A program made the position numbers and the translations under genes. From a virus, in the IMG/VR virus record IMGVR_UViG_3300025322_000015, positions 8,666 through 72,665 of that record: a DNA stretch of 64,000 bases. The stretch is one strand, 5' to 3'. Shown in pieces: positions 8,228 to 59,241 of this stretch; position 1 is the stretch's first letter; the number at the start of each line of letters is the position of its first letter. The notes beneath the pieces are model-generated. The model made no database searches, had not been told where the DNA came from, and was given only the letters and a program-made list of their open reading frames with translations.

Positions 8228-9059
8228 TCAACGTACTCCAGAATTTCCCGTCGTTGATTTCGTCAGTACTCCATTGGCAATACGCCAAATCGTTCAGTAT
8301 AGCGTTAACTTCTTCTGCACTTGCCTCCTTTGGTGAAATTACGTCTTCCAGTGTCCGCGATGATATTCCAGCAGTGACAGCATCGCCGAGACAGATTGCA
8401 GGAATGCCGGCAGTTATCGCCTCCATGACAGCATTGCTGCCATAGGTAACCATCGCATGCGCGCCACGAAGATCATCGAGAATATTGTATTCCGTCGAGA
8501 AATCACTGCCAGGAAGTTTCTCAGCGTGGTGCCAGGATTTCTTCGGACGGTACAAAACCTTACGGTCGGTAATCTTCGCAAGCCGATCAACAACATCTTG
8601 CCAATACGGCGTGGGATGTTCGAGGTGGTGAAACATATGATACTTCAAGCTGGATCCCGCGATCAGCACGTGACCCTTCTTTGTCTTCGGACGCCAGCCT
8701 TTGAAGCACCAACCTTCCGCTTCCCTACGATCAGAAGGTGAGTTCAACTTGCCGAGGTACTTCGTGGGTTGGTGGCCTCCATAAGAAATCTTCCACCAAT
8801 TCTTCTCACGGTTGTAGGGCTTGTCGAAGTAGATGTACGGAACGCCCGCCTTGTCGCAGTTGCCGGAAAGGAACACCTGCTTCACGCCGATGAACCCGAC
8901 GACATCGAACTGCGTAACATCTTCGATATAGCCAAGACAATGCACCTCCCAGCCGTGCATCTCCGCGCCGCGTTTGAAAGCCTGGCCTAAGGCGTATTCT
9001 AATTCTTTCCAACCACCACGCTCGGGTCGCTTCTCGGGAACCTGGAAACCTATCTTCAT
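8196..9059 (-). CDS. GT-B / capsule-synthesis (KpsS/KpsC-like) glycosyltransferase paralog 3
   Basis: VLYRPK, MVTYGSNAVMEAITAGIP, LAYCQW; ATGA overlap at the start. Confidence 0.6.
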   Translation of the reverse strand: MKIGFQVPEKRPERGGWKELEYALGQAFKRGAEMHGWEVHCLGYIEDVTQFDVVGFIGVKQVFLSGNCDKAGVPYIYFDKPYNREKNWWKISYGGHQPTKYLGKLNSPSDRREAEGWCFKGWRPKTKKGHVLIAGSSLKYHMFHHLEHPTPYWQDVVDRLAKITDRKVLYRPKKSWHHAEKLPGSDFSTEYNILDDLRGAHAMVTYGSNAVMEAITAGIPAICLGDAVTAGISSRTLEDVISPKEASAEEVNAILNDLAYCQWSTDEINDGKFWSTLNGCVQIRKAL

Positions 9060-36391: not shown

Positions 36392-36928
36392 CTACAACCT
36401 AATTCGCGTATTCTTTGCCCTAGGCGTAACAACGTAATCTGAGGCCATGATATCTTGAAAACGATAGATCATACATTTTCGATGTACGACCTCAAGCCGC
36501 CAACTGCGCGAATTCCGAGTCCAGTGCAAGGGTGTCTGCCCGATCTGCGAAATCCATAAGATTGGCATCCGATTCTGCTTCACGATCAAGATTGGGATGA
36601 GTCTGTACGTATTGGCTTCGACTATTGTACGACGCCAGAATTCAGTCAACACGCCCTTCCCCTTGACTAGGAAGGGTGCGAAATCTAGATTCTTATAGTG
36701 TTTCAGCTCGAAGTAGTAAGTATCAGTTAGGGCATGACCTTCTGGAGCTATCGCACAGATGTCTCCCGATTGTCGAAAGAGTGAACCCTTCTTCTTGAAT
36801 ACTGTAGCTCGACCGCCTGACATGGAATTGCGCCAAAAGACGTCTTGCTTCTGTCCACCGGTAACCCACTCAGACATCTTGACGCAAATCTCACGCTCGA
36901 ACTGTGATCCTTTTTGCTGAATAGCCAT
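36392..36928 (-). CDS. Holliday junction resolvase (Hjc-like PD-(D/E)xK)
   Basis: KGSQFEREI, SGDI, FELKHY. Confidence 0.8.
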   Translation of the reverse strand: MAIQQKGSQFEREICVKMSEWVTGGQKQDVFWRNSMSGGRATVFKKKGSLFRQSGDICAIAPEGHALTDTYYFELKHYKNLDFAPFLVKGKGVLTEFWRRTIVEANTYRLIPILIVKQNRMPILWISQIGQTPLHWTRNSRSWRLEVVHRKCMIYRFQDIMASDYVVTPRAKNTRIRL

Positions 36929-56635: not shown

Positions 56636-56688
56636 GCGCCCTTTTGTATATGAAAGAAAATAGTGGCCCAGTCTCCTGGGCCACCTTA

Positions 56689-57789
56689 CTAGGCGCTGAT
56701 CTTCTCCTGACTGCGCACGAGCTGGACAACCTTCGGGCTGGTCTTGCGCGTAGCCTTCTTCTCGGCTGCAACCTTGCGAGCGGCTGCCTTCTTCGCTGCG
56801 GCGGCAATCTTCTTGGCCTCGGCCGCTGCCTTCTTCGCGGCTGCGACAGCGCGACGTTTCGCGGCAGCAAGGTTCTTCTTCTCGAGGGCAATCTTCTTGG
56901 CTTCGATAATCTTCTCTGCCGCTGCAAGCTTCTTCGCCGCCTCAGCATCCTGACCTTCGGTAGCCGCCTTCTTCTTCGCTGCCGCTGCCAACTTCCGGGC
57001 CGCAGCCGCTTTCTTCTTTGCCGTCTCTACCTTCTTCGCGGCAGCAGCAATCTTCTTCTCAGCAGCAACCTTCTTGGCAATGATCTCCGCTTTCTTATCT
57101 GCGGAAAGCTTCATAGCGTGGCCAATCATCCCAGCAGCAAAGCCGGACATTAGGCTGATCATCTCCATCATCACCATCTGGAAGACGACAATCATCGCCG
57201 TCGTGTACGTGTCGATTTTGGTTCCAGCAACCTCGAACATCGTCTGGCCGAGAATCGCCTTCCCCGACATCGCTGCGGTCGTGTTCGCTTGCTGCTTCAC
57301 AACCTGGACCTTAATCTCTTTCTCCAGGATGTCTACGCGAGCAACAAGAGCGGTGCACTTGTCCTTACAACCTTTGTTCTTCGACTCAGCGAGCATCATC
57401 GCGCGCGCCACATCGAGAGAAGCGCGGAGGTCCTTTAGGTTCTCAGCACCAACCGTTTCGATCTTCTGCGCCGTGTGCGTCGTTACAAACTGCGTACCGA
57501 ACATATCGGCAGTGGCTAGGAAGGCGCAGACGAAAGATACGAGTGTGACCATCCAGTAGATGCTGCGCAGCAGCACCGTCTTGCCCACCGCCTGCATGGC
57601 AACCGGCAGAACCATCTTCGTGACGTCGCCGATAGCGAACATCACCGCACCAGCGATACCCATCGTCAGACCGACGACGACGTTAATATACAAGCTTAGG
57701 CCACCGGCTACGAGCACGATGGCGAAAATCACCGTACCAAAGATCCAAGCTGCGGCGATAGAAACGGACTTCTTAGCGGACTGGTTCAT
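56689..57789 (-). CDS. membrane protein with a coiled coil and an Ala/Lys-rich (histone H1/TolA-like) tail
   Basis: N-terminal TM helices, CKDKC, further TM, AAAKK repeats; AGGAG SD. Confidence 0.75.
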   Translation of the reverse strand: MNQSAKKSVSIAAAWIFGTVIFAIVLVAGGLSLYINVVVGLTMGIAGAVMFAIGDVTKMVLPVAMQAVGKTVLLRSIYWMVTLVSFVCAFLATADMFGTQFVTTHTAQKIETVGAENLKDLRASLDVARAMMLAESKNKGCKDKCTALVARVDILEKEIKVQVVKQQANTTAAMSGKAILGQTMFEVAGTKIDTYTTAMIVVFQMVMMEMISLMSGFAAGMIGHAMKLSADKKAEIIAKKVAAEKKIAAAAKKVETAKKKAAAARKLAAAAKKKAATEGQDAEAAKKLAAAEKIIEAKKIALEKKNLAAAKRRAVAAAKKAAAEAKKIAAAAKKAAARKVAAEKKATRKTSPKVVQLVRSQEKISA

Positions 57790-57807: not shown

Positions 57808-57884
57808 CGGGATGCCTCATCGGGCCGTGAGCTCCCACCTCACAACGACCATCGGGGAAGCTTTCGCTTCCCCTAGGTTTCGGC
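57808..57884 (-). ncRNA. type II hammerhead ribozyme HHR-A (U4C core)
   Basis: gcc GAAAC-stemIII(GAAA loop)-GUC | 8-bp stem I-CCGAUGA-ggc; loop I UGGGA pairs with the 3' tail UCCCG; predicted cut between 57847 and 57846. Confidence 0.85.
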
Positions 57885-57885
57885 T

Positions 57886-58299
57886 CTACTTCGTTAGCAC
57901 GATGGAACCAAGTTCCACCCAGAAGGCGCGAACAGCGTCCTCGGCCAAGTTGCTTGCAGCCGATGTGGACCGGCTACCCAACTTCATGCTCGAAAGAACG
58001 TTCCGAAGCGCCTCAGACTTAATCCGCTCCGGAATTGCATCGCCGTCGGCAGCATCCTTAATCTCGATAAGGACCCGCGCCGCCTGATCTGCCGTGAACG
58101 CCGCTACTGGAAGCTCGATGGCATACCAGCCCAACCAATGCGCCTGATGATGAAAAGTTACATCACCGTGCTCGCCGGCATAGGCAGCGTCCATCTCTGC
58201 TTGAGTCTTGAGATTCTCCAGCATCGACGTATAAAGATTCATCTTCGCGTTTAGCAAGAGACGAAGATTACCGACGTTTTTCGCTTCTCCGAGGAACAT
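57886..58299 (-). CDS. hypothetical protein flanked by HHR-B and HHR-A
   Basis: CAGGA SD. Confidence 0.75.
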   Translation of the reverse strand: MFLGEAKNVGNLRLLLNAKMNLYTSMLENLKTQAEMDAAYAGEHGDVTFHHQAHWLGWYAIELPVAAFTADQAARVLIEIKDAADGDAIPERIKSEALRNVLSSMKLGSRSTSAASNLAEDAVRAFWVELGSIVLTK

Positions 58300-58317
58300 T
58301 TTCTAATCCTGTGTAGT

Positions 58318-58396
58318 TGAGATGCCTCATCGGGCCGGGGTCTCTCACACCTCAGCGATCATCGGGGGCAGCTTTCGCCACCCCCTAGATTTCGGC
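58318..58396 (-). ncRNA. type II hammerhead ribozyme HHR-B (U4C core)
   Basis: gcc GAAAU-stemIII-AUC | stem I-CCGAUGA-ggc; loop I UGAGA pairs with UCUCA; predicted cut between 58357 and 58356. Confidence 0.85.
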
Positions 58397-58699
58397 TTAC
58401 TTCGTCGGATACTTTACGGCGTGCAGTTCTAGGAAGCGCTTGCACTCGGCAGCTTGGTAAGCTGCGCGATTGCGATACATCTGAGCAGCGTCGAGGTCAC
58501 CGTCGACCTCTGCATGCTTGACCCTATTCTCATACTTTGCAGCTAGGGTACAATGTGCCTTCGCGTCGTTTAGGCTAACGATACACCAGACGCCTTTCCA
58601 GGTCACCTTCTCACCGCACCTCTCGGTACCTTCCCCAGCTAAAACCGTTGGGACTGTAAGCAGTACAACTGAAGCAGCGAGGGCGATAACTTTAAGCAT
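58397..58699 (-). CDS. small secreted Cys-containing protein flanked by HHR-C and HHR-B
   Basis: Signal peptide MLKVIALAASVVLLTVPTVLA; four Cys. Confidence 0.75.
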   Translation of the reverse strand: MLKVIALAASVVLLTVPTVLAGEGTERCGEKVTWKGVWCIVSLNDAKAHCTLAAKYENRVKHAEVDGDLDAAQMYRNRAAYQAAECKRFLELHAVKYPTK

Positions 58700-58714
58700 C
58701 TTCTACTCCTGTGA

Positions 58715-58789
58715 ATGAGCTGTCTTATTCAAGCCGGGTAGCTCATCTCCCGACGACCTTCGAGGAATTTTTTTCCTCTAGGTTTCGAC
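58715..58789 (-). ncRNA. type II hammerhead ribozyme HHR-C (U3-A8 core with a 1-nt insertion)
   Basis: guc GAAAC-stemIII-GUC | stem I-UUGAAUAA-gac; loop I AUGAGCU pairs with AGCUCAU; predicted cut between 58755 and 58754. Confidence 0.8.
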
Positions 58790-59022
58790 TTTTCGTCTTC
58801 TCCGGTGTGCTTTCGCGGCCGGTAGGTTTAAGGTCCAGGAAGTCCTTTTTCTTTTTATCGTGAGCTTCTTTTGATGTTCCCAGCTTCCGCTCCGTTCGGT
58901 GCCTGGTTCCCCTTCTCGGGTCGGTAGTCCTCTCTACCGTCTTCTCTAGTCGCTGGTCGGGCCTGGAGCCTTTCCTTTCGGAGCCTTGAGGGGTCTTTCG
59001 ACACTTGCTCTGCAGCTCCGAT
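58790..59022 (-). ncRNA. structured purine-rich leader / candidate ncRNA
   Basis: Several hairpins (GUC-GAAA-GAC, CGGUAG-AGAGGA-CUACCG, CCGG..GC-GAAA-GC..CCGG), A-rich linkers, no credible ORF; TSS approximate. Confidence 0.55.
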
Positions 59023-59028
59023 AAATAC

Positions 59029-59057
59029 AATATAGTAACTTCTTTGTAGTAATGCAA
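59029..59057 (-). promoter_or_regulatory. sigma70-type promoter of the ribozyme operon
   Basis: TTGCAT-N17-TATATT with an AT-rich upstream tract. Confidence 0.75.
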
Positions 59058-59201: not shown

Positions 59202-59232
59202 AAAATAAAAGGCCGGGTGTTTCCACCCGACC
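59202..59232 (-). terminator. intrinsic terminator
   Basis: GGTCGGGTG-GAAA-CACCCGGCC followed by TTTTATTTT. Confidence 0.85.
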
Positions 59233-59241
59233 CGATTTCAA

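Follow-up and report, generated by a model that had tools for sequence, protein, structure and literature searches.

Does the transcript of a small phage operon cut itself ahead of each of its genes, and can it do so with ribozymes whose catalytic cores all depart from the hammerhead consensus? This is the question raised by a locus in IMG/VR virus record IMGVR_UViG_3300025322_000015, of which the window analysed here is a stretch of 64,000 nucleotides (positions 8,666 to 72,665 of the record). Our answer comes in parts of different strength. We are highly confident that three elements on the minus strand are homologous RNAs of the type II hammerhead family, that they belong to a phage subfamily and that they are under selection. 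That they cleave themselves at a useful rate seems to us probable.

What are the three elements?

When the minus strand is read from 59000 to 57600, three related elements of about 75–80 nt come into view, each with type II hammerhead topology, as a first-pass annotation of this DNA had claimed, and a relaxed structural descriptor finds the same three. Element 1 lies at 58714–58789, element 2 at 58318–58396 and element 3 at 57808–57884, and they score 63.9, 83.3 and 85.9 bits, respectively, with a covariance model (R1) that we built from 16 elements. In all three the order is the 5′ strand of stem II, GAAA, the stem III hairpin, U-C, the stem I hairpin, a core of 7–8 nt, the 3′ strand of stem II and a tail, so that loops close both stem I and stem III and stem II is open, as in type II. 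The minimum free energy fold of element 3 is a three-way junction, and that of element 2 is largely the same.

Stem II is only 3 bp long (GUC/GAC in element 1, GCC/GGC in elements 2 and 3). Stem III is a hairpin of 25–27 nt with 11–12 bp and an internal loop; it is closed by three pairs, which are followed by the internal loop (UA/GAU or UA/GAA), a G+C-rich helix and a GAAA or A-rich cap, while stem I is a hairpin of 6–8 bp with a loop of 7–10 nt. The GAAA segment (G12 A13 A14), the A15.1-U16.1 pair and C17 (position H17) are present in every element; C17 stands at 58755, 58357 and 57847, which places the predicted cuts at 58755/58754, 58357/58356 and 57847/57846, exactly where the first reading had put them. 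One nucleotide past the 3′ strand of stem II begins a tail complementary to loop I, and the resulting pseudoknots span 5, 5 and 8 bp in the three elements (UGGGA:UCCCG in element 3, UGAGA:UCUCA in element 2 and GAUGAGCU:AGCUCAUU in element 1). The covariations proposed at the outset between the three copies, in stem II (GCC:GGC against GUC:GAC), at 15.2-16.2 (C-G against U-A), in stem I and between loop I and tail, are all present.

How is the transcription unit arranged?

The three elements sit within a single transcription unit of about 2.4 kb on the minus strand, which runs from a promoter near 59057–59029 to a terminator at 56685–56662 in the order leader, element 1, cistron 1, element 2, cistron 2, element 3, cistron 3. 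Its upstream limit is the intrinsic terminator of the preceding single-gene cassette (59210–59233, from a consensus scan and from reading the sequence), and another intrinsic terminator, found by the same scan at 56662–56685, closes the three-gene unit. Between them, at 59029–59057, stands the sigma70-like sequence TTGCAT-17 nt-TATATT, which is conserved in the syntenic contig L080 and which we infer to be the promoter, with transcription predicted to start near 59022; the consensus scan does not list it because its −35 hexamer matches at only three of six positions. The conserved host-type promoter, together with neighbouring helicase and QueE-like genes, makes early expression plausible. The phage context is evident from neighbours that include an SNF2 helicase and a QueE-like protein and from PHROG matches, and a blastn search with the region against GenBank phages gave no match.

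From the putative start site to element 1 extends a purine-rich leader of about 230 nt (58790–59022). It has no conserved reading frame, since the insertions and deletions that distinguish it from L080 are not multiples of three, and it is predicted to form conserved hairpins with compensatory changes, three such pairs surrounding the AGAGGA loop of one of them. The leader gave no match in Rfam. Cistron 1 (58397–58699) follows, encoding 100 amino acids with a signal-peptide-like N-terminus behind the Shine–Dalgarno (SD) sequence AGGAG at 58710–58706; then come cistron 2 (57886–58299; 137 aa) and cistron 3 (56689–57789; 366 aa, with membrane segments near the N-terminus and a C-terminal part rich in Lys and Ala). 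Searches of protein families and of the Atlas assigned no function to any of the three: cistrons 1 and 2 match no family, and cistron 3 resembles unnamed phage proteins only.

All three elements lie within 1 kb, each 22–24 nt ahead of a start codon (58699, 58299 and 57789). Element 2 begins directly past the TAA of the frame 58699–58397 and element 3 begins 1 nt past the TAG of the frame 58299–57886, in agreement with the earlier statement that ribozymes lie within 1 nt of the upstream stop, and the pseudoknot tails end 3–7 nt upstream of the SD sequences. The two elements that follow cistrons thus repeat one layout of stop codon, ribozyme, SD (AGGAG or AGGA) and start codon. The annotation had described one ribozyme between each pair of cistrons, which is right for elements 2 and 3 but not for element 1: because the latter follows the non-coding leader, the first ribozyme separates a leader RNA from cistron 1 and not two cistrons from each other.

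Would a standard search have found them?

At the gathering score, Rfam reports no match in the window, and a search of 1.2 kb gave none at E≤10 either. The Rfam test suggested with the original claim therefore came out negative by the usual standard, although element 3 does give a sub-threshold, full-length alignment with RF02276 (Hammerhead_II; model positions 1–66, 20.0 bits, E 0.034 in a 106-nt search), in which all boxes are in register and a C stands opposite U4. The gathering score of that model is 37 bits, which none of the three elements reaches, and elements 1 and 2 gave no Rfam hammerhead match at E≤10 in a 501-nt search. However, a control with a canonical CUGAUGA core (L002:6697–6769) reaches just 17.8 bits, and Rfam at its gathering score finds nothing in 12 loci with canonical relatives. 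Since a canonical core fares no better, the miss mainly reflects the long stem III (25–27 nt here, against about 13 nt expected by RF02276), and the negative says little on the identity of the elements.

Our own descriptor required that the two 3-nt strands of stem II be complementary and that GAAA be present, together with a closed stem III that ends in U-H, a stem I of at least 4 bp and a core of the form Y-Y-G-A-N(1–2)-R-A in which positions 3 and 8 are C/G or U/A. In the whole 72,665-bp genome it matches these three elements and no others, and 100 dinucleotide-preserving shuffles gave a mean of 0.12 matches and a maximum of 2. A search of the window with model R1 at E≤10 likewise adds no other copy. 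A separate observation is that CGAAATCTAG has a single exact match, on the plus strand at 36679, which is within chance expectation.

Are the elements conserved among phages?

The closest comparison comes from L005, a 100.9-kb IMG/VR contig of a syntenic soil phage (sampled also as L061 and L080) that carries the same operon, with one hammerhead ahead of each of three homologous genes. Their cores read UUGAUAA (U3-A8, without an extra A), CCGAUGA and CCGAUGA, and a fourth hammerhead, again with a UUGAUAA core, lies further downstream; no counterpart of this fourth copy was found here by R1 in the window or by the descriptor across the genome. Window and L005 elements are 84–87% identical in nucleotide sequence, against 66–67% for the genes (44–57% in amino acids), so the elements are more strongly conserved than the genes that flank them. 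Across the three orthologous pairs there are no substitutions at core positions, and the changes in the helices are compensatory, as in U-A to C-G at 15.2-16.2 and UGGGA:UCCCG to UAGGA:UCCUA in the pseudoknot. In a variant contig from a soil metagenome, the core of element 3 is altered solely at position 7, where A replaces U and which is the only core position that hammerheads leave free, and contigs from four DNA sequencing runs contained few variants.

The L005 locus came to light through a DNA pattern; an IMG/VR search with the proteins of cistrons 2 and 3 gave no confirmed relatives. A search of IMG/VR for nothing but the stem III motif (CCGAAAYCUAG...CGAWGRUCG) gave 33 contigs, and this unusual motif, GAAACCUAG...CGAUGGUC, is common to hammerheads with CUGAUGA or CUGACGA cores in many IMG/VR contigs, where the canonical-core relatives adopt a type II or a type I arrangement. 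It is this sharing that ties the window elements by descent to ordinary phage hammerheads. Some candidates did not survive inspection. Among species genomes, 79 loci with the core pattern were rejected, with model scores of at most 27 bits and a 2-nt insert after C17, and these include a conserved chromosomal stretch of Arthrobacter/Paenarthrobacter; L034 and L035, which match in a 17-mer around the core, were set aside as they have no counterpart of the half with GAAA and stem III.

A search of the fetched loci with R1 produced an alignment (A3) of 62 phage type II hammerheads, in which standard pairs fill 94.6% of pair cells (69.7% in shuffles), the score for covariation reaches 0.502 (0.127 shuffled, and at most 0.076 with partners slid) and 16 of 19 pairs have changed on both sides, figures that for stems I–III lean towards structure because the alignment was fitted to those stems. 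The pseudoknot, which was absent from the search model, is paired in 83.7% of cells across these relatives, with both-sided changes at four of its five pairs, and the original claim of a loop I/3′-tail pseudoknot in each element is upheld. The A15.1-U16.1 pair is invariant in 62 of 62 sequences, and there are many G-U pairs that are valid on the minus-strand RNA only. In 39 of the 62, the stop codon of a frame of at least 45 codons ends no more than one base away from the base that opens stem II, and the succession of stop codon, ribozyme, SD and start codon is the rule among family members.

How unusual are the cores?

The hammerhead core consensus is C3 U4 G5 A6 N7 G8 A9 (CUGANGA), and all three elements depart from it. 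Element 1 has UUGAAUAA at 58732–58725, that is U3 U4 G5 A6, an additional A, U7, A8 and A9, while elements 2 and 3 share CCGAUGA (58333–58327 and 57823–57817) with a C at position 4 (58332 and 57822). Each of these deviations corresponds to a rare natural variant (U4C, U3-A8 and an insertion after A6, known as A6a), so that membership of the hammerhead family by descent and fold still holds. The literature on such variants gives a mixed picture. U4 is otherwise nearly invariant, and U4C strongly lowers activity in vitro, yet a viroid U4C variant that has lost much of its activity in vitro is functional in vivo (PMC3088659). The exchange of C3-G8 for U3-A8 is a covariation found in natural, active hammerheads, and A6a insertions give low activity (PMC3088659). 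The same paper lists an ‘Aedes(cCgauga)’ construct in its oligonucleotide table and has two Aedes examples in a figure of inactive RNAs (PMC3088659), which together suggest that one C4 RNA is probably inactive in vitro, with the proviso that Aedes hammerheads may need dimers. In another study, an A6C variant of the core prefers Mn2+ (PMC7151607).

Do such cores recur? In A3 we count CUGAUGA 35 times, CCGAUGA 16 times (a number inflated because one metagenome scan had asked for a C4 core) and CUGACGA seven times, with UUGAUAA twice, UUGAUGA once and UUGAAUAA once, in element 1 itself. A like-for-like IMG/VR scan gave three C4 elements on two contigs against 17 U4 elements on 13 contigs. The C4 cores are spread over about 12 distinct contigs; the stems I and III around them pair well and differ greatly from one another, and loop I and tail match. 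In L088 and L230 these cores stand in arrays adjoining hammerheads with canonical cores. For most of the metagenomic C4 examples the intactness of the rest of the core is not independent evidence, because the search pattern required it; L005, located through the stem III motif and synteny, is exempt from this bias. Taken as a whole, the C4 core looks recurrent and apparently selected in phage type II hammerheads. Our literature search returned no report of U4C/C4 hammerheads in phages, and as far as that search extends no operon has been described whose ribozymes all have non-consensus cores.

Is the serial arrangement new?

It is not, and here the first-pass annotation, which had seen in this operon a candidate for an undescribed system, has to be corrected. 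Perreault et al. in 2011 described type II hammerheads with a loop I/3′-tail pseudoknot and a stem II of 2–3 bp, as well as clusters in prophage operons in which two or three ribozymes flank single genes, whose functions are varied or unknown (PMC3088659). Triple arrays in A. tumefaciens (around ardA), C. scindens and A. caulinodans cleave in vitro, that of A. tumefaciens also in E. coli, and the role proposed for them is to divide long transcripts of phages into mRNAs of one gene each; a search for circular or spliced products of similar arrays found none (PMC3088659). Type II hammerheads near phage genes have likewise been found to cleave in D. vulgaris cells (PMC8782182), while a 2019 review still regarded the biological purpose of bacterial and phage hammerheads as open (PMC6765202). 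Among the IMG/VR loci that we fetched, L228, L230, L233, L234, L236 and L237 hold arrays of four to six hammerheads within 2–4 kb. With these precedents and the layout that the family shares, several hammerheads in the same direction within a few kilobases of phage DNA, flanking single genes as they do here, are not a novelty.

The window elements resemble the arrays of Perreault et al. in type II topology, pseudoknot, short stem II and the flanking of single phage genes. They differ in that the arrays tested in that work cleave, whereas ours are known from sequence and have non-consensus cores in all three members, and in that the first ribozyme of the window follows a conserved non-coding leader and not a gene. 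With the natural core variants they share the U3-A8 exchange and A6a-type insertion (element 1) and the U4C change (elements 2 and 3); unlike in the viroid U4C case, two diverged phages here both retain C4 at two sites, and C4 appears on about 12 metagenomic contigs besides.

Two further systems serve as working analogies, without family membership. In the early region of phage T7, RNase III sites cut the polycistronic transcript between cistrons, and synthetic ribozyme insulators such as RiboJ cut transcripts in synthetic operons and give them defined 5′ ends. The outcome proposed for the window would be the same, with a protective 3′ hairpin upstream and a defined 5′ end downstream. In contrast to T7, the proposed catalyst is the RNA itself and the ends would be 5′-OH and 2′,3′-cyclic phosphate.

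What would the ribozymes do, and what else might they be?

In the mechanism that we favour, each element would cleave 3′ of C17 during or after transcription, with the pseudoknot stacking on the 3-bp stem II. The products would be a leader RNA of about 268 nt ending in the stem III hairpin of element 1, and three monocistronic mRNAs; the placement of the elements supports this outcome should they cleave. The upstream RNA of each cut would end in a long G+C-rich stem III hairpin with a 2′,3′-cyclic phosphate, and would be a poor substrate for 3′ exonucleases; the unusual length of stem III would suit a further role as a protective 3′ hairpin. The downstream RNA would start with a 5′-OH right inside the stem I hairpin, after which come the pseudoknot and a free SD, and such an end would be a poor substrate for 5′-end-dependent decay. 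The stability and translation of each cistron could in this way be uncoupled from the others without a host RNase, much as happens through RNase III sites in the T7 early region and through ribozyme insulators in synthetic operons. Fold, homology to canonical-core hammerheads and selection on the core are established by the comparisons given above, at the level of sequence. For the catalytic step we have to reckon with the reduced activity reported for U4C and for insertions after A6 (PMC3088659), with a stem II of just 3 bp and with two elements that find no Rfam hammerhead match; as the cores are not consensus, cleavage would probably be slower than in canonical hammerheads, or condition-dependent.

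The most serious rival grants the ancestry and denies the activity: the elements would be hammerhead-derived modules, catalytically crippled, in which the fold is kept and useful cutting is lost, and which would serve as structural insulators or stabilisers between cistrons, or offer a protein or host RNase a place to bind or enter. All three cores do deviate at places where a change (U4C or A6a) has cost published variants much of their activity, the Aedes cCgauga construct is probably inactive (PMC3088659), and an RNA that is never cleaved could still gain stability from a long, G+C-rich stem III and its GNRA loop. Even so we think this reading unlikely, since a dead ribozyme need not keep G5, A6, G8/A8, A9, G12-A14, A15.1-U16.1 and C17, and these positions are unsubstituted in the three orthologous pairs despite about 33% divergence of the flanking genes, the sole core polymorphism that we have seen being at the free position 7. 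Moreover, positions 3 and 8 have altered jointly, to U3 and A8, in element 1 and two of the L005 elements, as one would expect were the catalytic C3-G8 pair still important.

The two remaining explanations dispense with the hammerhead altogether. One would have a protein nuclease, of host or phage, process the elements by cutting within stem III, as happens at the RNase III sites of T7, with the hammerhead likeness incidental; hairpins of 11–12 bp with an internal loop, located between cistrons, might be taken to suit such a role. RNase III substrates, however, are typically about 20 bp, longer than these stems, the same stem III module is present in canonical hammerheads, and the GAAA and CYGAUGA boxes, the three-way junction, the covarying stems I and II and the pseudoknot would all be left unexplained, so we consider this very improbable. 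Less credible still is that the likeness arose by chance, or that we are looking at nothing more than a DNA repeat between genes (a promoter or mobile repeat, for example) with no role as RNA. The absence of an Rfam match at the gathering score is what speaks for it. Against it are three sites where 0.12 were expected, G-U pairs valid on the minus-strand RNA only, compensatory changes both towards L005 and across the 62 relatives, and conservation that exceeds that of the neighbouring genes; the covariation counts effectively refute it.

To return to self-cleaving hammerheads, we have of course speculated on why the cores should be as they are. One possibility, which we hold tentatively and on balance rather doubt, is that the C4 hammerheads are a selected phage type II subclass and not decayed ribozymes, in which slower or conditional cleavage tunes the share of polycistronic and monocistronic RNA. 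The U4C and U3-A8/A6a cores may then set the rate, for example through pH, Mn2+ or the concentration of Mg2+, and the abutment on stop codons could let terminating ribosomes delay the folding of the ribozyme. On the same reading, the first ribozyme would also set free, as a molecule of its own, the conserved and structured leader RNA (about 268 nt).

Why does this operon matter?

We see in this locus no new kind of system and instead a compact test case, in which one promoter and one terminator enclose three small genes and their three ribozymes, a syntenic relative permits comparison and the core deviations have apparently been retained under selection. Should C4 hammerheads cleave, the core consensus now accepted would be too narrow and phage hammerheads would have been under-counted; the Rfam model rests on that consensus and also misses canonical relatives with long stems III. 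And if their cleavage turns out to be slow or conditional, these elements would be natural examples of tuned intercistronic processing, of interest for phage gene dosage and as design parts.

Hammerhead arrays, variants and look-alikes

Type II hammerheads are found in series on other single viral contigs, with four to six elements inside 2-4 kb in L234, L236, L233, L228, L237 and L230 (the arrays span 298-3781 in L234 and 317-4153 in L236), and some of these arrays mix canonical and variant cores. An element with C at position 4 (core CCGAUGA) adjoins elements with the canonical CUGAUGA core in L088 and in L230, one such element in each, and the syntenic soil phage L005 carries a fourth hammerhead, with core UUGAUAA, two cassettes further downstream (L005:129-48, minus strand), of which the window holds no counterpart. 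The GAAA box varies as well, being replaced by GAUAA in L230:4779-4857 (+) and L238:9122-9213 (-), the form described as the U13a insertion by Perreault et al. 2011. Across 33 viral contigs from IMG/VR (L001-L033), phage hammerheads of both type II and type I have in common a stem III module, A-CC-UA-G...C-GAU-GG-U, whose UA/GAU internal loop is asymmetric.

Repeats of the motif CCGAUGAG(R)CA...AAAACACGCUAACGUAU occur at L035:4380-4520 (+) and were rejected as hammerheads by the descriptor, the GAAA/stem III half being absent. The pattern GCCGAAA...GGCCCGAUGAGGC is also matched by a chromosomal stretch conserved in many species (Arthrobacter/Paenarthrobacter loci including L152, L153, L156 and L165), which reaches no more than 27 bits with our covariance model and carries a two-base insert after C17; this match is probably a coincidence of coding sequence.

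Gene context and the leader RNA

In our alignment of type II phage hammerheads (62 sequences, taken from loci in IMG/VR and in metagenomes), the stop codon of the upstream ORF (counted for ORFs of at least 45 codons) ends no more than one base from the first nucleotide of stem II in 39 elements, frequently as UAA|GCC or as UAG sharing the G, and the following start codon lies 20-30 nt past stem II in most. Genome compaction alone could account for this abutment; alternatively, folding of the ribozyme could be coupled in this way to the termination of translation.

Upstream of the three-cistron operon on the minus strand, the window has two single-gene cassettes (59703-59210 and 60417-59969). 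Each possesses a GAAA-loop terminator together with a sigma70 promoter close to the consensus, such as TTGATA-16-TATAAT at 59645-59618. Within the operon itself, a leader (59022-58790, minus strand) runs from its own predicted promoter to element 1, the first hammerhead; it is conserved though non-coding when compared with L080:483-722 (-), from the soil phage also sampled as L005, and has no match in Rfam. The leader's predicted hairpins show compensatory changes, with CGGUAG-AGAGGA-CUACCG in the window, for instance, becoming GCCUAG-AGAGGA-CUAGGC in L080, and cleavage by element 1 would free this leader as an RNA of ~268 nt.
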